This document shows positions 1 through 43,050 of a stretch of 45,198 nucleotides of DNA, one piece after another. Source of the DNA: an uncultured Streptomycetaceae bacterium (GTDB lineage: Bacteria > Pseudomonadota > Gammaproteobacteria > Burkholderiales > SG8-41); contig CAZMBS010000001.1 in NCBI GenBank assembly GCA_964564295.1, forward strand, positions 12,182-57,379, in the 5' to 3' direction. The position numbers and the translations under genes are program-made. The number at the start of each line of letters is the position of its first letter. Within the stretch, counting starts at the first letter, position 1. The notes under the pieces were generated by a model. The model did not search any database. It saw nothing but the letters and a program-made list of their open reading frames with translations, and was not told where the DNA came from.

Positions 1-968
1 TTCGCGTACAGGCGCAGGAAGCGTTCCTGGTCGGGACCGGGCGCATGAAATACCAGGTGCCGGAATCCCAGGTCCACATACGGACGGATCTTCTCGACGT
101 GTTCGTCAGGGTCGGTCGACACGATCCATCGCGTCGCGGTGCGCTCGAGCGGCAACGCGTCCGCGAGTTTCTCCATGGCCATCGGGTCTTCCACCGATAC
201 TTTTTCTTCCGGAGACAGGGCGAGCGCACCCCAATACCGGGTATCGTTCAGCGCGCGCCCGGCGTCGGTATCGAACGACACCTTCATCTCGATCATGCGA
301 TCGAAACCGGGTTTCCCGCTTCCGGAAATCCGGATGCCCTCGTCGACGTTGGGCAACAGCTTTTCCGTGTACAGCGTCATGGCCTTGCCGCTGGTGCAGA
401 TGAATCCGTCGCCGGCGCGCCCGGCGTACTTGGCAACCATGGGCCCGGCGGCCGCCACATAGATCGGAACCGGCCGCTCGGGACGATCGTAGATCGTGGC
501 ACGCTCGGTCCGGTAATACTCGCCCGCGAACGACACGCGGTCCTCGGCCCACAGTTTTCGTATCAGCGTGACCGACTCGCGCAACCGCGCAAACCGTTCC
601 TTCATTTCCGGCCAGGGCTGTCCCGTCGCCGGTACCTCGTTTAGCGACTCCCCGCTGCCCACGCCGAGCACGAAGCGGCCGGGAAACATCGCGCCCAGCG
701 TTCCGAACGCCTGCGCGACGATCGAGGGGTGATAGCGCATCGTGGGCGTCAGCACGCTCGTGCCGAGCATGACGCGCGAGGTCCGTGCCGCCGCCGCGCC
801 CAGCCAGGCGATGCACGACGGCGCATGCCCGCCGGTATGCCGCCACGGCTGAAAATGATCGCTCGTGAAAACAGAATCGAAGCCGCACTCTTCGGCGATG
901 CACGCGTAGCGCAACAACTCCGCCGGTCCGAACTGTTCGGCGGACGCCTTGTATCCCAGTTTGATCAT
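1..968 (-). CDS. fgd: F420-dependent glucose-6-phosphate (sugar-6-phosphate) dehydrogenase, LLM family; 3' end truncated by window edge
   Basis: Not in the ORF track because it has no stop in the window. Manual translation from ATG 968 gives [15 protein letters not shown]...[15 protein letters not shown]...[13 protein letters not shown]...GSGESLNE...[14 protein letters not shown]...[17 protein letters not shown]...[15 protein letters not shown], collinear with mycobacterial Fgd as I recall it. Confidence 0.93.
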
Positions 969-987: not shown

Positions 988-1386
988 TCAGACCTGGCCG
1001 AGTTCCCGCGCGCGATCCTCCGCGGCCTTCAAGGCGCGCTGCCCCGACACGATGTACGTCATCATGCCGCCCAGCAATATGCAGAGGCTCACGACGTCCG
1101 CCACCTGCTGCACGGTGGCGCCCGCCTCGATCGCGAGCTTCGCGTGGCGGTCGGGATTCGGCTTGTGCGCGATGATTTCAACGGCCGTGGAGATGAGCTC
1201 GAGGTCTTTCAGACTCAGGCCTTTCGAGTCGTTCGACTCAAAGATCGTCCGGCGCAGCTGTATCCAGTCGACGAGCACTTCCGGACGGTAGCGGGCCAGG
1301 CGTTCGTAGGATTCAAGCACCTCGCCGTAATACGTCATGCTGTACTGCCGCACTGCGGCGAGGTCCGCGGCGTTGTCGCGTTCCAT
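988..1386 (-). CDS. Carboxymuconolactone decarboxylase (CMD/AhpD-like) family protein
   Basis: 132 aa with [13 protein letters not shown]...[16 protein letters not shown], a CMD-fold pattern. TAATG stop/start overlap with the upstream LLM gene. Confidence 0.75.
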
Positions 1387-2449: not shown

Positions 2450-3439
2450 TCAGTCATCGGCCCGCGCTCCTGAAGCCTTGACCACTTCAGCCCAGCGCAC
2501 AGTTTCCTCGCGCACGAACGCGCCGAACTCCGACCTGCTGCTGCCGACGGGCGTCACACCGATGTCCAGCATGCGCGTCGCAACATCCGGCTGGCGCATG
2601 ATGCCCCGGATTTCACCGGACAGCCTGTCGAGGATGATCGCCGGCGTTCCGGCTGGAGCGAAGAATCCCTGCCACGACGTCACCTGGAAGCCGGGAACCG
2701 TTTCGCCCACCGTCGGCAACTCCGGCACGATGGGAGAGCGCTGCGCGCCGGTGACTGCGATCGCGCGCAGCTTTCCGATCTTTGCCTGCGCGTGCGCGGT
2801 TGGCATGTTGTCGAATGCTACGTGCACGTGTCCGCCCACGAGGTCAATGATCATCGGACCGCTGCCCTTGTACGGTACGTGCAGCATCGATGCTCCGGTT
2901 TTCATTTTAAGCAGCTCCGCCGCAAGGTGGCTCGAGGTGCCCGCGCCGCCCGCCGAGCCGTACGAGTACTTGCCCGGGTGGGTCTTGAGCATTTGAACCA
3001 ATTCCGGAACCGTCGCTGCCGTCACGCTGGGGTGGGCCACCAGCATCAGCGGCTGCGAGGTCGCGAGCGACAGTGGCGCAAAATCCTTCAGATTGTCGTA
3101 GCGCAACTTCCGATAAAGGGACGCGTTGATCGCATGGGTACCGACGGTCCCGACCATCAACGTATATCCGTCCGCCTGCGCCCTTGCGACGTATTCCGAA
3201 CCTACCGCACCGGCCGCCCCCGTCCGATGTTCGACGACGACCGGCTGGCCCAGTCGTTCGCTCAATTTCTGTCCGACGACACGTCCGACAAGATCGGCGA
3301 TTCCGCCCGGCGCATGCACGACGACGATGCGCAGCGGCTTTCTCGGGAACGGTTCCTCGCGCTGCGCGAGCGCCACGCCGCTACCGCCGGCGGCAACCAG
3401 CGCAATCAGCAGCCGCAAAAAACAGTTGTGATGGTGCAT
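2450..3439 (-). CDS. Bug/TctC family tripartite tricarboxylate transporter substrate-binding protein
   Basis: Signal peptide, FPRKPLRIVV..APGG..D, GAAGAVG, DGYTL, HVPYKGSGP. Start reassigned to ATG 3439 (GGAGG SD upstream); the ORF-track extension overlaps the LysR gene. Confidence 0.9.
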   Translation of the reverse strand: MHHHNCFLRLLIALVAAGGSGVALAQREEPFPRKPLRIVVVHAPGGIADLVGRVVGQKLSERLGQPVVVEHRTGAAGAVGSEYVARAQADGYTLMVGTVGTHAINASLYRKLRYDNLKDFAPLSLATSQPLMLVAHPSVTAATVPELVQMLKTHPGKYSYGSAGGAGTSSHLAAELLKMKTGASMLHVPYKGSGPMIIDLVGGHVHVAFDNMPTAHAQAKIGKLRAIAVTGAQRSPIVPELPTVGETVPGFQVTSWQGFFAPAGTPAIILDRLSGEIRGIMRQPDVATRMLDIGVTPVGSSRSEFGAFVREETVRWAEVVKASGARADD

Positions 3440-3571
3440 CACCCGACCTCCCGGCAACCGTGCGACGACGGGCGGCCGCCCGGCGCGGCTGCCGTGGTGG
3501 GTCGCAGACGTCTGCCCCGCCAAGCTATACGTCCAGTATAATAATCCATCTCGATTGATACATGGCAAGTA
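3440..3571. promoter_or_regulatory. Divergent promoter region between the tctC-LLM-CMD-fgd operon and the LysR gene
   Basis: AT-rich stretch with TATAAT at 3537-3542 and a perfect palindrome GCAGACGTCTGC at 3504-3515. Classic divergent LysR layout. Confidence 0.5.
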
Positions 3572-4510
3572 TTGTTCGTGGACTTGCGACAACTGACCCA
3601 GTTCGCTGCCGTGGCCGAGGCCAGAAGCTTCCGGCGCGCGGCTGAACGCCTGCAGATGACGCAACCGCCGTTGAGCTTCGCCGTGCGAAGGCTCGAAGAG
3701 GAGCTGAACGTCCGGTTATTCGATCGCACGAGCCGTTCCGTACAGTTGACCGAGGCCGGAAAGGCGCTGCTCGAAGGGTCGAGGACCGTCATGGCCGCGC
3801 TCGATGCCGCGATCCAGTCGACCCGGCGCACCGCGCAGGGGTTCGCCGGCAAACTTTCCGTGGCGCTGTCGGTGCCCTGGGCCTACGACGTCGCGCCAGC
3901 GGTGCTGCGAAATTTTCGCGCGACCCACCCGGGAGTCGTGATCGGGCTGCATGAAGTGCCGTCGTCCGAGCAGGCGAGGCGCATACTCAACGGCAGCCTG
4001 GACATCGGTTTTCTGCGACTTCCCGACCGCTACGCGACACCCGGCCTGAAGACCGTGACATTGCGCGAGGACCGCCTGACCGTGGTGTTGCCCGCGAAGC
4101 ATGCGCTCGCTGCACGCAAGACGTTGTCGCCACGGGATCTGCGCGACGCGGCATTTGTTCTGCCGCCATTCCCGGCCGTGCCGGGTATCGAGCGTTTCAG
4201 TTTCCGAATCCAGGTCGAGAATCTGTGCCTGGGGGCGGGCTACGCACCGCGAGTCGCGCAGGAAGCGAGCCAGATGCAGTCCATCGTCCGGCTGGTGGAA
4301 ACCGGGCTCGGGATTTCGATCGTGCCGGGCTGGGCGCGCACGCACTTTTCGTCGCGCGCCGTGTTCCGGAGATTGTCGTCGCCGTCGCCGGCGTGCCGTC
4401 TCCGCTTGGTGGCTGCCTGGAACGCCGACAATCCTTCCCCGGTATTGCAGGCGTTTGTCCAGGCTGTGCGCCGCGCCGAGGTGTCGTCGCGAGCGCGCCA
4501 GGTCGCATGA
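3572..4510 (+). CDS. LysR family transcriptional regulator
   Basis: N-terminal HTH DLRQLTQFAAVAEARSFRRAAERLQMTQPPLS..RRLEEEL..LFDRTSRSVQLTEAG plus substrate-binding domain. Start may be GTG 3578. Confidence 0.95.
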   Translation: MFVDLRQLTQFAAVAEARSFRRAAERLQMTQPPLSFAVRRLEEELNVRLFDRTSRSVQLTEAGKALLEGSRTVMAALDAAIQSTRRTAQGFAGKLSVALSVPWAYDVAPAVLRNFRATHPGVVIGLHEVPSSEQARRILNGSLDIGFLRLPDRYATPGLKTVTLREDRLTVVLPAKHALAARKTLSPRDLRDAAFVLPPFPAVPGIERFSFRIQVENLCLGAGYAPRVAQEASQMQSIVRLVETGLGISIVPGWARTHFSSRAVFRRLSSPSPACRLRLVAAWNADNPSPVLQAFVQAVRRAEVSSRARQVA

Positions 4511-4539
4511 ATGCAACTTCGCCGAAGGAGGGTATCGCC

Positions 4540-5598
4540 ATGCTCACATCGTGTTCGCAATTCCTCCGGTGCGGTGTTGCCCGAGTCGCCGGCAGCCCCA
4601 ACCCGGTTCGCCGAATCCGCTTGCTCAGCGCGACCGCGCTTGCGACCCTGATAGTCTCGGCTGGAGCCGCGCCGCCCGCTGCGCACGCGCAATCACCGGC
4701 ATATCCGTCCAAGACGGTGCGCGTTGTCGCGCCGTTCCCGCCCGGCGGGACCACCGATCTGGTGGGCCGGTTGATCGCGCAAGGACTGGGAAAGCGATTG
4801 GGGCAGAACTTCATCATCGACAATCGCGGCGGCGCCGGCGGCTTGATCGGAACGGACATCGTGGCGAAAGCGCAAGCCGATGGCTATACGCTGCTCGTCG
4901 GTGCATCGGGACCCATCATGATGCTCCCGGGACTCACGAAAAAACTTCCCTACGACGTGCTCGGGGACTTCGAGACGATCGCGAATATCGTGACGGTCCC
5001 CAACCTCATGGTCGTTCCGGCAGGCTCCCGGTTCGGCACGCTGAAAGATCTGATCGACCATGCGAAGTCGAATCCCGGTCGGGTACGATACGCGTCCGGC
5101 GGGGTGGGCTCCTCGGGCCATGTCGCGGGCGCCTTGCTGGGCTCGATCGCCGGCATCGACATGCAGCATGTGCCGTACCGTGGCGCGGGCGTCTCGCTCG
5201 TCGGCGTCATGGCGGGAGAGGCCGACGTGATATTCGTCAATCTGCCGTCCGCCCTGCCGCTCACGCGCAGCGGGAAACTGCGCGGGATCGTCGTCATGAG
5301 CGACAAACGGGCATCAACCGCGCCGGAATATCCCACGACGGCGGAAGTCGGCATGCCGCGATTCGTGCTCGGCAGTTCGACCGGGCTTCTCGCGCCAAAG
5401 CGCACATCGAGGAAGATCGTGGCGCTGCTCGATGAAGCGATGAAAGCATTGGCGGAGGAACCCGAGTACACCAGGCAATTCGCACTCTCTGGCGCCGACA
5501 TCGATTTCATGAACGCGGCGCGGTACCGCGCATTTATCTCCGCCGAAATCGCGCGCTTCACGGATCTGGGCAAAAAAGCAAACATCACGGCGGAATAA
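4540..5598 (+). CDS. Bug/TctC family substrate-binding protein
   Basis: YPSKTVRVVAPFPPGGTTD, NRGGAGG, DGYTL, HVPYRGAG. AAGGAGG SD before ATG 4540. Confidence 0.9.
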   Translation: MLTSCSQFLRCGVARVAGSPNPVRRIRLLSATALATLIVSAGAAPPAAHAQSPAYPSKTVRVVAPFPPGGTTDLVGRLIAQGLGKRLGQNFIIDNRGGAGGLIGTDIVAKAQADGYTLLVGASGPIMMLPGLTKKLPYDVLGDFETIANIVTVPNLMVVPAGSRFGTLKDLIDHAKSNPGRVRYASGGVGSSGHVAGALLGSIAGIDMQHVPYRGAGVSLVGVMAGEADVIFVNLPSALPLTRSGKLRGIVVMSDKRASTAPEYPTTAEVGMPRFVLGSSTGLLAPKRTSRKIVALLDEAMKALAEEPEYTRQFALSGADIDFMNAARYRAFISAEIARFTDLGKKANITAE

Positions 5599-5636
5599 GC
5601 GATCGCAATTCGGGAAACGGGAAAAGGAACAGCCTC

Positions 5637-7019
5637 ATGGCGAAAATCGACATGTTGTTTACCGGTGGAGAAATACTGACCCCTGCGGGCAGAATCCACG
5701 CAACGCTGGGGGTGGAGAATGGAAGAATCGCGTTCATTTCCTCCGCTCACTGGACACCACCGGCCGCCGAAACGGTCGACGTTTCCGGGAAGTTGCTGGT
5801 TCCCGGATTCATCGACTCGCACGTTCATTTTCGGGATCCGGGACTCACCTATAAGGAAGATTTTCTGACCGGCTCGCGCGCGGCGGCAGCTGGCGGTGTC
5901 ACGTGCGTGGCGGACATGCCGAACAACAAGCCGGCGCTGACGACAGCCGCGCGGTTTCGTGACAAGCTCGACGCCATACGGTCGAAAGCCGTTGTCGACT
6001 ATGCGCTTTACGGCGGATCGACGAACCACGCGGAAATTCCCGGCATGCTGCGGGCGGGCGCCATCGGCATCAAGGTGTTCATGGTCTGCGACCCCAAGTC
6101 GCACTATCCGCACGACCCCGAGCTTTTCACGGGCGATCATGGCGTGCTGTACGACACGCTGAAAGTCGTGGGCGCCGAAGGCGGCTACTGCGCGGTTCAC
6201 CCCACGAATCAGCAGATATTCGAACACGAATCCCGCAAGCGCTGGGCCGCCGGGACGCTTGCCCCGCGCGATTTCATGAATGCGTATTTCGGGGAAAATT
6301 ACGTTTCCGATCATACGGCAATCGTCACTTTGATCGAAATGGCGCGCGCCTCGGGCACGCGCACTCACATTCTTCATCTGCGTTCGGAGCCGGGCATACG
6401 CGCGATTCAGCACGCCAAAGAGGAGGGCGTGCCGGTGACCATGGAGGTCAACCCGAAGTACATGTTCACCAGCTTCGAGGACCTCGACAGGAAAGGGCCG
6501 CTATGCGTGCCGTATGCCATGACTCCGGCCGGCCAGCAGATGCTGCTGGACTGCGCGAACCGCGGCTGGGTGGATGTGTACGGGACGGATCACGCGCCGC
6601 ACACTAAGGAAGAGATGGAGCCGGGTTGGAAAGACGCCTGGAGCATCCCGTTCGGCAATCCACAGGTGGAGCACTACATCACGGCGCTGATGACGCACGT
6701 GAGCGCCGGGCGCATGAGTCTGGAAACGCTGGTTCGCCTGTGTGCGGAGAATCCGGCCAAAGTCATGGGCGTGTGGCCGCGCAAGGGCATCATTCAGGTC
6801 GATTCGGACGCGGATATCACGGTGCTCGACCTCGATGCGCGTGGAACGCTGTCCGACAAGGACGTGTACACGAAGGTAGGTTGGTCGCCTTATTCGGGCC
6901 TCCAGTACCATGGCCGGCCGGTGATGACGGTCGTGCGGGGCCGCATCGTCATGCGGGATGGAAAAGTCATCGGCGAACCGGGTTGGGGAAGGCTGGTCCC
7001 CGGGAGGGCCGCAAAATGA
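5637..7019 (+). CDS. Cyclic amidohydrolase (dihydroorotase/allantoinase/dihydropyrimidinase superfamily)
   Basis: PGFIDSHVHFRDPG, GSRAAAAGGVT..DMPN, carboxylatable Lys (GIKVFM), HILH, GTDHAPH, ENPAK, DADI metal-centre motifs. Confidence 0.88.
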   Translation: MAKIDMLFTGGEILTPAGRIHATLGVENGRIAFISSAHWTPPAAETVDVSGKLLVPGFIDSHVHFRDPGLTYKEDFLTGSRAAAAGGVTCVADMPNNKPALTTAARFRDKLDAIRSKAVVDYALYGGSTNHAEIPGMLRAGAIGIKVFMVCDPKSHYPHDPELFTGDHGVLYDTLKVVGAEGGYCAVHPTNQQIFEHESRKRWAAGTLAPRDFMNAYFGENYVSDHTAIVTLIEMARASGTRTHILHLRSEPGIRAIQHAKEEGVPVTMEVNPKYMFTSFEDLDRKGPLCVPYAMTPAGQQMLLDCANRGWVDVYGTDHAPHTKEEMEPGWKDAWSIPFGNPQVEHYITALMTHVSAGRMSLETLVRLCAENPAKVMGVWPRKGIIQVDSDADITVLDLDARGTLSDKDVYTKVGWSPYSGLQYHGRPVMTVVRGRIVMRDGKVIGEPGWGRLVPGRAAK

Positions 7020-7393
7020 GCGCGGACGTGGAGGTGCCGGGCTGTTCGCCCGAGGTGGTATCCGATGCAACGCGCATATTGTCCGAGGCGCGGGCTCAAT
7101 GCGCTGCCCTGGGCGTTCCGCCGGAGGCGTTCGCGGCGTTGCTGTTGCCGGAGGCCCTTCTCGCCATGATGGTGGCTGGCATGCGGCAGGAAGAGGTCGA
7201 GGATGAATTTGCGCGCTTCGCGCGGGAGAACATTCCGGCGTGGTTTCTGCAGGTGAAACGCACCGCCGGCTATTGCGACTGCGAGCGCGAAGCGCGGGGT
7301 GAACATGCGGCGTACTGCGACGTTCGGCGGGCGCCCGGATTGCCGCGGCCGCTGTTCGACAGGATCCGGCAACAAATCGGCGCCGAAAAATGA
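7016..7393 (+). CDS. Hypothetical protein (125 aa) with a C-terminal CxC...H...C cluster
   Basis: ATGA overlap with the amidohydrolase stop; fills the gap up to the convergent pgl. Confidence 0.6.
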   Translation: MSADVEVPGCSPEVVSDATRILSEARAQCAALGVPPEAFAALLLPEALLAMMVAGMRQEEVEDEFARFARENIPAWFLQVKRTAGYCDCEREARGEHAAYCDVRRAPGLPRPLFDRIRQQIGAEK

Positions 7394-7424
7394 CGGGAGG
7401 AGCGCCGACTGCCGGTTTCAGTTA

Positions 7425-8150
7425 TCAAACGCCGGCAAGCGCTGCCTCGTCCACGAATACTTGCACCGGGCAGCGAATCCGGCTTGCAGGAATGGACGGG
7501 TCGCGCTGCAACAGGCGTTTCACCGCAGCCGCCTTGTCGGCGCCGGTAATTACGAACATGACCTGACGGGCGCGATTGAGCGCGGGAAAGGTGAGGGTCA
7601 TGCGCCGCGTTCCCTGGTACAGGCCGGTGACGGCGACGTCCGATCCGGTCATATCCAGGACCGGATCACCGGGAACCAAAGAAGCTGTGTGTCCGTCGGC
7701 CCCCAACCCCAATTGAACCAGATCCAGCACCGGGGGAGATCCCGCGATTTCCGCGAGCGTTGTCGCGTACAGTGCCGCCGCCGCGACGGGATCGGCAGCC
7801 GTCACCGGCATGGCGTGCACGTTGTCGGGCGGGACGGGCGCGCGATCCAGAAAACTCTGCTGAAGTTGCGTCAGATTTCGATCCGGATGCCGGTCGGGTG
7901 CCAGGCGCTCGTCCACCTGGACCACATGTACGGCATTCCACGGCAAGTCTTCTGCCGCGAGCACGCGCAGCATGATCCAGGGCGTGCGGCCGCCACTGAC
8001 ACCCAGCACGAAACGGCCACGATTCCGTGCGGCTGTTCTTGCCGCCTCGGCGATGCGCCTCGCCGCCGCACGCGCAACTGTTTCAGCGTCGGGATGGACC
8101 TGCGTATCCCACACCGGATTACCGATGCGCATTTCGGGCGCATCAGCCAT
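7425..8150 (-). CDS. pgl: 6-phosphogluconolactonase
   Basis: [38 protein letters not shown] motifs. Start reassigned to ATG 8150, overlapping the gnd stop. Confidence 0.9.
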
Positions 8151-9162
8151 CCGAGCGTTTCTCCAGATGCCCGCCGAAAGCATGCCGCATCGCCGACAAG
8201 ACCTTGTTCTGAAACTCCGCGTTTCCACGTGAGCTGAACCGCCCGAACAGTGCAGCAGCGAGGACCGGCGTCGGCACGCCCTCGTCGATGCCCGCCTTGA
8301 TCGTCCAGCGCCCTTCGCCCGAGTCCGAGACGCGCCCGGCAAATCCGGTCAGCCCCGGGTCCTTGTGCAGCGCGGCAGCAGTGAGATCCAGCAGCCAGGA
8401 ACTGATCACGCTGCCGCGACGCCACACTTCGGCGATGTCCGCGACGTTGAAATCGTACTGATAGTGCTCCGGATGAGACAGCGGCGTGGTTTCCGCATCG
8501 GCCGCGTGCGAGATCAAGCCCGCATTTGCCGCCTGCAGTATGCCGAATCCTTCCGCATACGCGGCCATGACGCCGTACTCGATCCCATTGTGAATCATCT
8601 TGACAAAATGTCCGGCGCCATTTGGGCCGCAGTGCAGGTAACCCGCCTCCACGGCGCCGCCGGTGCCGGCGCGTCCCGGCGTGCGCGGGATTTCGCCCCG
8701 ACCCGGAGAAAGCGTCGCGAATATGGCATCGAGGTGACGAACCGTCGCTGCATCGCCACCAATCATCATGCAATAACCGCGTTCGAGGCCCCAGACACCG
8801 CCGCTGGTGCCGACATCAACGTAGCGTATGCCCTTGGCGGCGAGCGCTTTCGCGCGCCGCAAGTCGTCGACGTAGTGCGAGTTGCCGCCGTCGATCAGGA
8901 TGTCCCCCGTGCCCAGGTGCGGCACCAGCGCATCGATTGTTTCGTCCACCACACCGGCCGGAACCATGAGCCAGATCGCGCGGGGCGATTCGAGCCGCCT
9001 GGCCAGCTCCTGCATGCTTGCCGCGCCGGTCACGTTGTCGAGCTTCAATCCCGCGACCGCGTCGGCCGATCGGTCGAACGCCACGCAGCGATGCCCTCCC
9101 GCCGCGAGCCGGCGCACCATGTTGGCGCCCATGCGCCCCAGTCCTATCATTCCGAGTTGCAT
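8143..9162 (-). CDS. gnd: Decarboxylating 6-phosphogluconate dehydrogenase, short (YqeC/GntZ) type
   Basis: [58 protein letters not shown]. Confidence 0.95.
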
Positions 9163-9239
9163 CGGTGACTCCCCGCGCGAGTTCCTCGCGTATCATGTAT
9201 CGCGATAATATATTGATTCGACGACGATAAGGAGCAAGC

Positions 9240-10220
9240 ATGGCATTTCGAGTCTTTGCCGCGGTATGGTCCGTCGTGTTGTCGCTTGTCAGCCCCGCCG
9301 GGATCCCGGAAAGCGCCGCGCAAAATTATCCTGTTCGATCGATTCGCCTCGTTGCGCCTTCCGGGGCCGGAGGGCCCGTGGATGTCGTTTGCAGGGTGGT
9401 GGCTCAGCGCCTTGGAGAAGTGCTCGGTCAACAGGTCGTGGTCGAAAATCGCGTAGGCGCTGCCGGGCTGATCGGCACCGACATAGTTGTTCGCAGCGCG
9501 CCCGACGGCTATACGCTGCTCTGCGGATTCTCGGGGCCGCTCGCGATCGTGCCGAACCTCAACGCCAAGACGCCGTACCAGGTGTCACGCGACCTTCAGC
9601 CCATCACTCAGGTTGCGGTGGCGCCGTACGTGCTGCTCACGCATCCGAGCGTTCCCGCCAGAAACGTGAAGGAACTGGTGGCGCTTGCCAAGGCACGACC
9701 GGGGAAAATGAACTTCGGCTCCGGCGGCGTGGGCGTGGGCATTCACATGGCCGGCGAATTGTTCAAGGTCGCTGCCGGCGTAAACATCGTGCACGTGCCG
9801 TACGGCGGCGCGGCGCCCGCGATGACTGCGCTCATGGCCGGCGAAGTGGATATGATGTTCAACGGGCTTTCGGCTGCGGCATCGCACATGACGAGCAACA
9901 AGGTGCGCGCGATCGCCGTGGGCGGCGAGAAGCGCGCGGCACTTTTCCCCGAAATTCCGACGATTCAGGAATCCGGCTACGAGTTCAAGACCGGCGGGTG
10001 GTACGGCCTGCTTGCACCGCGCGGCACGCCGCAGCCGGTTGTCAATATGCTGCAGCAGGCAACCGTCAAGGCCATGGATTCAGCCGACACGCGGCAGACG
10101 CTGGCCAAGATCGTAACGGAGGTCGTGACGGGGACGCCGCAGGCGTTCGCGGACCTGATCAGTCAGGAACACGCATTATGGGCCCGGGTCATCAAGGCTG
10201 CGGGGATCAACGTGCAATAG
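9240..10220 (+). CDS. Bug/TctC family substrate-binding protein
   Basis: Signal peptide, YPVRSIRLV...GG, ENRVGAAG, PDGYTL, HVPY. TAAGGAG SD. Confidence 0.9.
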   Translation: MAFRVFAAVWSVVLSLVSPAGIPESAAQNYPVRSIRLVAPSGAGGPVDVVCRVVAQRLGEVLGQQVVVENRVGAAGLIGTDIVVRSAPDGYTLLCGFSGPLAIVPNLNAKTPYQVSRDLQPITQVAVAPYVLLTHPSVPARNVKELVALAKARPGKMNFGSGGVGVGIHMAGELFKVAAGVNIVHVPYGGAAPAMTALMAGEVDMMFNGLSAAASHMTSNKVRAIAVGGEKRAALFPEIPTIQESGYEFKTGGWYGLLAPRGTPQPVVNMLQQATVKAMDSADTRQTLAKIVTEVVTGTPQAFADLISQEHALWARVIKAAGINVQ

Positions 10221-40663: not shown

Positions 40664-41418
40664 AGACCGAGCAACATGACGCGATTGTCTTGTCCAGCCA
40701 GAGCGAAAAGGACATTCAATCTGAGCTGATTCGGCACTTCCGCGAGTCGACATTGCCTGCGGATGAGGTCTTGCCGAACTTGGGCCTGTTTCTGACCTCC
40801 AAAGCGTTGTCGCGCATTCTGTTCTTCAATGAAATTTACCGAAAGATACTTGGAACCCATGGCGTTATCATGGAGTTTGGCGTGCGATGGGGACAATCGC
40901 TCGCGCTAATGTCCGCGCTGCGCGGCATCTATGAGCCCTTCAATCGCCACAGGAAGGTAATCGGGTTCGATACTTTCGATGGCTTTCGGGGGATGGGTCC
41001 GGAAGACGGCAGCCGGTGCAATTCTGTCGATGGCTCTTTTTCCGTATCCAGGGATTACGATGCCTACCTGGAGAAACTGCTTGCACTTGCGGATGGCTTG
41101 AATCCGATCCCCCATCTCAAGAAGTTTGATCTGGTCAGGGGTGACGCGACTTCGACCGTGCCCGACTATCTGGCGCGGCATCCCGAGACGATTATTTCGC
41201 TAGCGATATTCGATTTCGATATCTACAAGCCGACCCGGGCTGCGCTGCAGGCAATCAAACCACATGTGATGCGCGGCACCGTGCTGGTCTTTGACGAACT
41301 GTGCGACGATATCTTTCCCGGGGAGACCGTGGCGTTGCGGGAGGTCTTTGACCTGAATTCCCTGCGAATCGAGCGCATGCCAATGACCGCGCGCGTCTCT
41401 TACGCGGTGCTCGATTGA
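40660..41418 (+). CDS. TylF/MycF/NovP-family sugar O-methyltransferase
   Basis: MEFGVRWG, GFDTFDGF, LVRGD, FDFDIYKPT, G.VLVFDE...FPGET. ATGA-coupled. Confidence 0.8.
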   Translation: MKTEQHDAIVLSSQSEKDIQSELIRHFRESTLPADEVLPNLGLFLTSKALSRILFFNEIYRKILGTHGVIMEFGVRWGQSLALMSALRGIYEPFNRHRKVIGFDTFDGFRGMGPEDGSRCNSVDGSFSVSRDYDAYLEKLLALADGLNPIPHLKKFDLVRGDATSTVPDYLARHPETIISLAIFDFDIYKPTRAALQAIKPHVMRGTVLVFDELCDDIFPGETVALREVFDLNSLRIERMPMTARVSYAVLD

Positions 41419-42197
41419 ATCCCGCCTGCAAGAGGATACGCGCGAACGTCCTTTTGGCCTCCAGCGCCAGTGGCCACGGCCATATTCCCACCGGATTTTC
41501 CGTCATCGAGTGCATTTACGCCGCCTACGGCGTCATGCGACATGATCCAGCGCGCCCGGACTGGCAGGAGCGGGACCTGTTCATTCTCAGCAAGGGGCAC
41601 GCCGCGTTGGGATATTACGGCGTGCTTGCGGAGCTCGGCTATTTTCCGGAAAGCGACCTCTCCCGGTTTGGTGCTTATGAATCGCCGTTGGGATGTCATC
41701 CCGACAGGCTGAAAGTGCCGGGCGTGGAAGCGTCCACCGGATCTCTCGGGCACGGCATTAGTCTCGCCGTGGGGATGGCGCTGGGTATTCGAATCGCGGG
41801 GGAGAATCGCCGCGTGTTCACGCTGATTGGCGACGGGGAAAGCAACGAGGGATCCGTGTGGGAAGCCGTAATGGTCGCCGTGCATCTGCGCCTGACGAAC
41901 CTCACGGTAATTTATGACCACAACAAATCACAGGGCCGTTGCCTTCCGATTCCCAATCCGGGAGATCGGTTTCGTGCATTCGGGTGTGATGTGCTTGAGG
42001 TGCCGGGGCACGATATGGAATCGTTGAGCCGGGCTATGTCTGCTGCAACCGAATTGCCGCGGGTCGTTGTCGCCGACACGCAAAAGGGGTACGGCTGCGA
42101 GACGCTGGTGAGGAATATGTACGAGTGGCATCGCCGTTCTCCGAACAAAGAGGAACTGCCGAGGTTGCTGGAGGAACTTGATGCGACGGCAGTTTAA
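41415..42197 (+). CDS. Transketolase, N-terminal (ThDP-binding) subunit
   Basis: GH, LSKGHA, GCHP, STGSLGHG, GDGE..EGSVWEA...N. Confidence 0.9.
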   Translation: MNPACKRIRANVLLASSASGHGHIPTGFSVIECIYAAYGVMRHDPARPDWQERDLFILSKGHAALGYYGVLAELGYFPESDLSRFGAYESPLGCHPDRLKVPGVEASTGSLGHGISLAVGMALGIRIAGENRRVFTLIGDGESNEGSVWEAVMVAVHLRLTNLTVIYDHNKSQGRCLPIPNPGDRFRAFGCDVLEVPGHDMESLSRAMSAATELPRVVVADTQKGYGCETLVRNMYEWHRRSPNKEELPRLLEELDATAV

Positions 42198-43050
42198 GGA
42201 GACCGTTTCCGGTATTGCGGAGCATGATGCGCGCGTAATCGTGGTGCTGGGCGACGTCAGCGTCTACATGTTCAAGGATTTCCAGGAACGCTGGCCCGAT
42301 CGCTTCTACAACATGGGCATCTGCGAGAACGCGCTGATCAGCGTTAGCGCGGGACTTGCCTCGCAGGGTTTTTTTCCGTTTGCGCATACGATTGCGCCGT
42401 TTCTGACGGAGCGCAGCCTGGAACAGATCAAGCTCGACATGTGCTACAACCGGTTCGGCGGAAATATTGTGACCTGCGGCGCGTCGTTTGATTACGCCTG
42501 GGACGGCTCCACGCATCATTGTTATACGGAACTCGCGGCGTTGAGAATGATTCCGCACATGGATGTCTTGCAGCCGGGTTCTAGGCGCGAGGTGGACGCG
42601 CTGATCCGCGCCACATATAACAACGGCCGAGCGACGTATTTTCGGTTGTCCGATCACCCGCATGATCTGGAAACTTGCACCGAATTTGGTCGGGGAACCG
42701 TCATGAAGACCGGTACATCCGGAGTCGCGGTCGCTACGGCCGGACCGCTACTGCCCAATGTGATCGAAGCGTGTCGTGATCAGAATGTCGATGTCCTGTA
42801 TTTTCATACGCTCAAGCCCATCGACCGGGAGCTCATCGAACGATTCCGAGACAGGCGCATTCTGGTCGTGCATGACGCGCACGGCCTGCGTGAGGCCATT
42901 AACGAGGTTCCAGGTCTTCGCAGTTCCTACCACGGCCTGCCGGATGAATTCTGTTCTTGGTACGGAACCGTGCACGACATTCGGCGCCACATCGGGCTCG
43001 ATCCCTCCGGTATTCGGGCGGCTGTGACCCGGCTGCTCTCGACCGGTTAA
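42181..43050 (+). CDS. Transketolase, C-terminal (pyrimidine-binding) subunit
   Basis: RFYNMGICE, AGLA, FL.ERSLEQIK.D, GSTHH, TLKPID. Confidence 0.88.
   Translation: MRRQFKETVSGIAEHDARVIVVLGDVSVYMFKDFQERWPDRFYNMGICENALISVSAGLASQGFFPFAHTIAPFLTERSLEQIKLDMCYNRFGGNIVTCGASFDYAWDGSTHHCYTELAALRMIPHMDVLQPGSRREVDALIRATYNNGRATYFRLSDHPHDLETCTEFGRGTVMKTGTSGVAVATAGPLLPNVIEACRDQNVDVLYFHTLKPIDRELIERFRDRRILVVHDAHGLREAINEVPGLRSSYHGLPDEFCSWYGTVHDIRRHIGLDPSGIRAAVTRLLSTG

Follow-up and report, generated by a model that had tools for sequence, protein, structure and literature searches.

Organization of the fgd and gnd-pgl region

The window analysed here is a stretch of 45,198 nucleotides (nt) that corresponds to positions 12182-57379 of contig C1 of a metagenome-assembled genome (MAG), hereafter G000 (3.35 Mb, 344 contigs, 76% complete, 3% contamination). 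Near its left edge it carries fgd, coding for an F420-dependent glucose-6-phosphate dehydrogenase and, further to the right, an overlapping pair of genes, gnd and pgl, which code for a 6-phosphogluconate dehydrogenase (6PGDH) and a 6-phosphogluconolactonase. Genes were called by scanning the open reading frames (ORFs) of the window against the Pfam and NCBIfam profiles, with the curated cut-offs applied. The GC content is 0.62-0.64 across the first 27 kb. To the right of gnd-pgl are genes for a TonB-dependent receptor, MsbA and an O-antigen ligase, and the host is therefore a Gram-negative bacterium. The genes of the gnd-pgl unit and of the F420 island around fgd are the following:

8143..9162, minus strand: gnd, short-type 6PGDH, 339 residues; TIGR00872, 408.1 bits (cut-off 297.2); NF007161, 455.5 bits; PF03446 and PF00393
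7425..8150, minus strand: pgl, DevB-type 6-phosphogluconolactonase, 241 residues; TIGR01198, 185.2 bits (cut-off 124.45); PF01182
3..968, minus strand: fgd; TIGR03554, 478.6 bits (equivalog cut-off 420); the C-terminus extends past the left edge of the window
C1:7100-11974, left of the window, same strand as fgd and directly downstream of it: cofE (267.3 bits), cofD (288.2 bits), cofC (133.3 bits) and a fused cofGH/fbiC (1160.1 bits), all above their cut-offs
988..1386, minus strand: CMD (AhpD-like) family gene, 20 nt from the fgd start; PF02627, 30.2 bits
1386..2393, minus strand: luciferase-like F420-dependent oxidoreductase (LLM) of the Rv2161c family; TIGR03619, 177.4 bits (cut-off 166.9); PF00296

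The longest ORF for pgl spans 7425-8342 on the minus strand, with the Pgl domain beginning only at residue 82. We place the start at the ATG at 8150, which has the sequence GGAG (8164-8161) ten bases upstream; Pgl therefore has 241 residues, and its match to TIGR01198 covers profile positions 1-230 of 234. Because the TGA stop codon of gnd occupies positions 8145-8143, the two genes overlap by 8 nt, as opposed to about 200 nt for the longest ORFs. This short overlap suggests that gnd and pgl may be translationally coupled. The length of Gnd fits the short type of the enzyme, for which 300-340 residues are expected. Its two best models carry the names of different cofactors, and the motif that follows strand beta-2 is F-D-R-S. 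The D-R pair after beta-2 was considered as a possible cofactor motif of gnd genes linked to fgd or cof genes, among which it is enriched (6/8 linked rows versus 3/24 zwf-linked rows); it was rejected, as it is also present in 10 of the 12 zwf-linked gnd genes of metagenome loci. A scan of positions 6900-9400 for promoters and terminators gave one site of each, not above the level of shuffled sequences.

None of the ORFs of the window matched the zwf family in Pfam or NCBIfam, and tblastn with two types of zwf (E ≤ 1) detected neither zwf nor a remnant of it on contig C1. Thus, gnd and pgl do not belong here to a classical gnd-zwf-pgl operon, with zwf inside or abutting the pair. The pgl stop codon lies 6,457 nt from the start of fgd, on the same strand. 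The initial annotation of this DNA was accurate in that gnd and pgl overlap, that the window has no zwf and that fgd is found about 6.5 kb away.

Fgd scored 478.8 bits against TIGR03554 in the genome-wide search. Its last ten or so residues fall outside the window, in a masked stretch (X in the translation; window positions 1-12 and leftward) that also covers the exact fgd stop codon and the spacer between fgd and cofE. In phmmer alignments, residues 2-321 matched two Fgd enzymes of solved structure, 5LXE from Rhodococcus (E = 1.8e-136) and 3B4Y from M. tuberculosis (E = 9.3e-133). Lys198, Lys259 and Arg283, which we take to form the phosphate-binding pocket, and Trp44, presumably also important, are conserved in the Fgd of the window and in 79-80 of the 80 related loci described below. 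A valine at the position of His260 was considered as a sign of altered function and rejected, since histidine occupies this position in only 8 of the 80 loci. Glu13, His40 and Glu109 (M. tuberculosis numbering), named as the catalytic residues of Fgd (PMC12384609), are likewise kept here and in 79-80 of the 80 loci.

On one strand, the F420 island reads LLM-CMD-fgd-cofE-cofD-cofC-fbiC. With cofE, cofD, cofC and fbiC all present, the cell is predicted to be able to make F420. The luciferase-like oxidoreductase (1386-2393) is likely to be a user of F420H2; the CMD-family gene (988-1386) had no match in NCBIfam. A second luciferase-like oxidoreductase of the Rv2161c family is found at C1:5148-6101, so that the two copies flank the F420 biosynthesis genes, and only the copy in the window exceeds the family cut-off. 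Similar LLM genes adjoin gnd in three other genomes (G090, G092 and G081). LLM genes of the Rv2161c type near cof or gnd genes are candidate F420H2 users.

A single zwf gene stands alone elsewhere in the genome

A genome-wide inventory of paralogs, as proposed in the initial annotation, returned one fgd, one DevB-type pgl, one short gnd and one zwf in the assembled G000. The assembled contigs contained no long-type gnd above the cut-off, and neither Fno nor Edd was detected above the respective cut-offs in the assembled genome. The zwf gene (C76:8368-9906; TIGR00871, 635.5 bits) is full length and free of stop codons. It stands alone beside fpg, with neither pgl nor gnd nearby, and is of another subtype than the zwf of the gnd-zwf-pgl operon. 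The GC content of contig C76 equals the genome median and the gene shares 83% identity with a fragmentary zwf from a relative in the same family; zwf therefore looks native and not a contaminant. The absence of zwf noted in the initial annotation is thus a property of the window and not of the genome, and because the zwf on C76 is intact, Fgd is not the sole head of the branch in G000. A zwf-free branch headed by Fgd is not what this genome contains: zwf is present, and fgd is not co-transcribed with pgl or gnd.

Lactonase and 6PGDH genes are repeatedly linked to fgd

The genomes of 185,579 species were scanned for Fgd, and the best 80 loci, at 61-78% identity, were kept. Most of these are in records titled Alpha-, Beta- or Gammaproteobacteria. 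At least one cof gene was found in 57 of the best 80 loci, and zwf in none of them. In 8 of the 80, a lactonase gene, a 6PGDH gene or both lie within 10 kb, beside fgd or cof genes:

L024: fgd-gnd-pgl
L039:10001-20945: fgd and cof genes, then a YbhE-like beta-propeller lactonase gene, a gnd of 372 codons and an Rv2161c-type LLM gene; zwf-less alphaproteobacterial MAG
L044: gnd-fbiC-fgd-cofE-cofD-cofC
L064: pgl-fgd
L079:8747-12022: pgl-fgd-gnd on one strand, gnd of the long type (TIGR00873, 756.8 bits); zwf-less uncultured Xanthomonadales MAG
L083: fgd-cofE-cofD-cofC-gnd-pgl
L099: cofE-cofD-cofC-fbiC-gnd-pgl-fgd
L100: gnd-pgl-fgd

Not only does the gene order differ among these loci, they also contain three types of 6PGDH and two unrelated types of lactonase. 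The lactonase of L039 matches NF008258 with E = 8e-58, below the cut-off, and is a non-orthologous lactonase in an fgd/cof context. The gene order in L024, L079, L099 and L100 fits co-transcription of fgd with pgl and/or gnd. In L079 all three steps of the oxidative branch are encoded together, Fgd substituting for Zwf. In two further genomes gnd is located at a cof locus that is separate from fgd: G056, with the order cofE-gnd-cofD, and G090, where gnd is 3.7 kb from fbiC. Proximity of these genes to fgd is, then, not unique to G000, a uniqueness that in the initial annotation would have told against a functional meaning. By an arithmetic estimate, the probability is about 0.3-0.4% that a given gene pair in a genome of 3.3-4.4 Mb lies, by chance, no further than about 7 kb from fgd. 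Of 20 gnd or pgl genes that occur singly in genomes with fgd, only that of G090 has a cof gene near, and the gnd genes of G071 and G077, both zwf-less, have only unrelated neighbours. Two DevB-type pgl genes that belong to clades far apart occur in genome G110, one in a zwf-pgl arrangement (L156) and the other in gnd-pgl-fgd (L100); each dehydrogenase seems to have retained a lactonase of its own.

We then have the distribution of zwf itself. For 50 of the 80 loci the genome was searched, after exclusion of 16 loci from outside the Proteobacteria and 14 on short contigs; one of the 50, G068, enters the tallies only. In 9 of the 50 fgd-bearing genomes zwf was not found, and in those 9 and in G056 it was still absent at E ≤ 1e-3. 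Short gnd is retained in 7 of these 10 zwf-less genomes. With G000, G056 and G016 included, zwf is absent from 8/11 genomes in which a lactonase or 6PGDH gene is linked to fgd or cof genes, versus 3/42 of the unlinked ones (Fisher p = 2.5e-5, a value that is overstated, because the genomes are related and mostly MAGs without known completeness, and the groups were defined post hoc). The co-occurrence of fgd, pgl and gnd that the initial annotation suggested examining thus recurs, in several gene orders, and goes together with the absence of zwf.

The closest relatives of gnd and pgl belong to gnd-zwf-pgl operons

We searched 60 relatives of G000, 36 from the same family and 24 from the same order. 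Fgd exceeded the cut-off in two of them, G016 and G056, while short gnd was present in 21, zwf in 19 and DevB-type pgl in 14. In 12 of the 21 relatives with short gnd, the gene lies within 1 kb of zwf, arranged as gnd-zwf-pgl, gnd-zwf, divergent gnd/zwf or gnd-pgl-zwf, and in 8 of the 14 with a DevB-type pgl the latter is within about 1.3 kb of zwf. The premise that pgl and short gnd commonly cluster with zwf is therefore sound. G056, which is 99% complete and of the same order as the host of the window, has cofE-gnd-cofD on one strand (L120 = G056:C18:41000-49000, genes at 2681-5867); in this fgd-bearing genome no zwf was detected even at E ≤ 1e-3, and no DevB-type pgl was found.

Trees were built for pgl (33 rows, careful search) and for gnd (56 rows, quick search). 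The pgl of the window falls in a clade of 8 rows with support 100/100, all from fgd-bearing genomes; four of the rows are fgd-adjacent gammaproteobacterial genes, and none of the 11 pgl genes from relatives of G000 is inside this clade. The subclade of the window's pgl also contains the zwf-linked L158, L169 and L174. The gnd of the window joins L158 and other, mostly zwf-linked genes with support 96. In the gnd tree, the 8 rows linked to fgd or cof genes require 7 changes, and gnd was therefore recruited repeatedly and independently.

A pgl-centred scan of metagenome contigs gave 49 loci, most at 55-65% identity and only four with full flanks. In 36 of the 39 informative loci zwf is directly upstream of pgl, usually as gnd-zwf-pgl; two of the remaining informative loci have gnd directly before pgl without zwf and one is unclear, and the ten loci beyond the 39 are too short to tell. 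No fgd or cof gene was seen in any of the 49 loci, only four of which have full flanks. One contig (L185:2-3430) reads pgi-gnd-pgl, without zwf, and its gnd is 71% identical to that of the window over the first 69 residues. The idea of an fgd-specific pgl clade was dropped in view of these loci, since the clade consists mostly of gnd-zwf-pgl operons. Thus, the nearest sequence relatives of pgl and gnd do sit with zwf independently of fgd, an outcome that the initial annotation had named as unfavourable to its proposal; the recurring linkage to fgd in other genomes stands nonetheless. Because the closest relatives of both gnd and pgl are in gnd-zwf-pgl operons, the junction without zwf seems to be a derived state that arose when the middle gene was lost, and descent from such an operon would be the simplest direction of change.

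Genes between gnd-pgl and fgd and the remainder of the window

The interval between gnd-pgl and the F420 island contains:

2450-3664, minus strand: TctC receptor; PF03401
3572-4510, plus strand: LysR regulator; PF00126 and PF03466
4225-5598, plus strand: TctC receptor; PF03401
5637-7019, plus strand: amidohydrolase; PF01979, with dihydroorotase-, allantoinase- and hydantoinase-like NCBIfam matches all below their cut-offs
6890-7375, minus strand: ORF without a family match in the Pfam and NCBIfam scans, overlapping the end of the amidohydrolase gene and probably not a gene

A third periplasmic receptor of the TctC/Bug family is encoded on the other side of gnd-pgl, at 9240-10220. The three receptors, the LysR regulator and the cyclic-amidase-like amidohydrolase (2450-10220) may form an uptake and catabolic module for some carboxylate. 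Further to the right, positions 15709-45198 are a large lipopolysaccharide/O-antigen region, with genes for MsbA, the O-antigen ligase, several glycosyltransferases, an ABC-2 exporter pair and many sugar-nucleotide epimerases and dehydratases; a split transketolase-like pair is located inside this region, at 41352-43050. Beyond about 27 kb the GC content falls from 0.63 to 0.57-0.60.

Discussion

What the genes are, how many copies there are, how they are ordered and that the linkage recurs in other genomes are direct observations; enzyme activities, fluxes, the direction of gene-order change and selection on the neighbourhood are all inferred here from sequence. In the scheme that we propose, glucose-6-phosphate would be oxidised either by Fgd, which would convert F420 into F420H2, or by the single Zwf, whose gene lies elsewhere, with reduction of NADP+ to NADPH. 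Both dehydrogenases would yield 6-phosphogluconolactone, which Pgl would hydrolyse, and Gnd would then decarboxylate the resulting 6-phosphogluconate to ribulose-5-phosphate, with formation of NAD(P)H. We consider it probable, with room for doubt, that Fgd is the only recognised F420 reductase of the cell and that Pgl-Gnd is the only recognised sink for its lactone, a sink shared with Zwf. Since Fgd is the sole recognised F420 reducer and Pgl and Gnd the sole recognised enzymes removing its product in the assembled genome, the supply of F420H2 would depend on this short branch. On thermodynamic grounds, removal of the lactone may also pull F420 reduction forward, as the initial annotation proposed. 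The functional link between Fgd, Pgl and Gnd likely holds whatever their distance on the map. We are less sure that the proximity of 6.5 kb is itself under selection.

Several observations weigh against this view. An intact, native-looking zwf is present, and Zwf alone could feed Pgl-Gnd. As G000 is 76% complete, additional copies of pgl, gnd, zwf or fno may exist, and a weak YbhE-like match on contig C24 (24.6% identity, E = 6e-6) could represent a second lactonase. The closest homologues of gnd and pgl are zwf-linked, with no fgd in view, both in the trees (L158, L169 and L174) and in 36 of the 39 informative metagenome loci. Also, genes on the plus strand lie between gnd-pgl and fgd and preclude their co-transcription, and the window is the loosest of the linked cases, with an unrelated module of 6.5 kb separating gnd-pgl from fgd. 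Finally, most of the zwf-less MAGs may be incomplete. The initial annotation had proposed an F420-linked branch Fgd-Pgl-Gnd headed by Fgd. Its enzymes are real, each is the sole copy found, the linkage recurs and zwf is absent from 8 of the 11 linked genomes; that Fgd alone heads the branch is not supported for G000, which has the intact zwf on C76, and neither is co-transcription of gnd-pgl with fgd.

Could gnd-pgl simply be an ordinary oxidative pentose phosphate unit fed by Zwf, placed near the F420 island by chance or hitch-hiking, with Fgd merely sharing a metabolite? The intact zwf of the genome, the unrelated and oppositely oriented genes between gnd-pgl and fgd, and nearest gnd and pgl homologues that accompany zwf without fgd are what this would lead one to expect, as are the 72 of the 80 Fgd loci with no lactonase or 6PGDH gene within reach and the two metagenome contigs, one of them pgi-gnd-pgl, in which gnd directly precedes pgl with no fgd visible. 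However, a distance this short has a chance expectation of only about 0.3-0.4%, the association with fgd or cof genes arose repeatedly, in different orders and with non-orthologous enzymes, and it accompanies the absence of zwf. Moreover, the genome in which the operon lacks a zwf of its own is the very one that has fgd next door. On balance we regard an ordinary Zwf-fed unit as unlikely. The opposite extreme, that in G000 the Pgl-Gnd branch is physiologically headed by Fgd instead of Zwf while the stand-alone zwf serves another role or other conditions, seems to us more improbable still. It is consistent with the loss of the zwf that usually lies between gnd and pgl in the closest homologues, with Fgd being the only F420 reductase recognised in the genome and with the ten other fgd-bearing genomes without zwf (E ≤ 1e-3), seven of which keep short gnd and suggest that an Fgd-only arrangement is viable. 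Against it, the zwf of C76 is full length, stop-free and high-scoring, sequence cannot tell which dehydrogenase carries the flux, and the two activities are roughly equal in mycobacteria, according to a 2021 review (PMC8498797).

Our preferred reading, a Pgl-Gnd sink shared by Fgd and Zwf, can be set in a broader frame, which we put forward tentatively and at slightly less than even chances. In scattered Alpha-, Beta- and Gammaproteobacteria, Fgd would have displaced Zwf as the sole glucose-6-phosphate dehydrogenase, making the oxidative branch obligatorily F420-coupled. Lactonase and 6PGDH genes would have been recruited at least six times into the fgd/F420 operon, as three types of 6PGDH and two unrelated lactonase folds. 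The genome of the window would then be an intermediate, in which the zwf of the operon was lost and a stand-alone zwf was kept.

In mycobacteria, fgd1 is not known to cluster with pgl or gnd. The dual entry of mycobacteria, through Fgd1 and an NADP-dependent Zwf, resembles the situation in G000 in that there are two glucose-6-phosphate dehydrogenases per cell and that Fgd reduces F420 and makes 6-phosphogluconolactone; Fgd is described as one of the pentose phosphate pathway's two points of entry in PMC8498797. The Fgd of the window, moreover, can be aligned with its Mycobacterium and Rhodococcus counterparts from one end to the other and keeps the catalytic residues. In contrast to mycobacteria, the host of the window is Gram-negative, and its fgd heads the F420 biosynthesis genes and is near gnd-pgl. 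With the proteobacterial gnd-zwf-pgl operon, the window shares clades, gene order and orientation, its gnd being up to 71% and its pgl up to about 57-66% identical to members; unlike the operon, it has the 8-nt overlap instead of a zwf between the two genes, and no zwf remnant on the contig. The fgd-linked arrays, such as L099, have the same seven functions on one strand, and the pgl genes of four gammaproteobacterial arrays are sister to the window's pgl subclade inside the 100/100 clade. The genes of the arrays abut, however, and most of their genomes lack zwf, whereas the window has the 6.5-kb module and its genome keeps zwf.

In the literature searched, which covers only part of what is in print, neither a clustering of fgd, pgl and gnd nor lineages with Fgd but without zwf were found to be described. 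The words "Proteobacteria" and "pentose" are both absent from Mascotti et al. (2018; PMC6279831), and in PMC8498797 Fgd is only question-marked in Alphaproteobacteria and betaproteobacterial producers are listed with Fno only. The F420 biology of Gram-negative bacteria is largely uncharted. To it we add proteobacterial Fgd proteins at 61-78% identity, the association of fgd with F420 biosynthesis genes in 57 of the 80 loci, and a subset of loci, in genomes without zwf, where genes for the two following steps of the pentose phosphate pathway are physically linked to fgd. The window alone makes a more modest case than this cross-genome pattern, that of a plausible functional neighbourhood and not of a zwf-free pathway. 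If the pattern holds true, these organisms would draw low-potential F420H2 directly from a sugar phosphate and would be natural test beds for the use of F420H2 outside the Actinobacteria. The compact seven-gene array could also serve as a module for the production and regeneration of F420 in engineered hosts.

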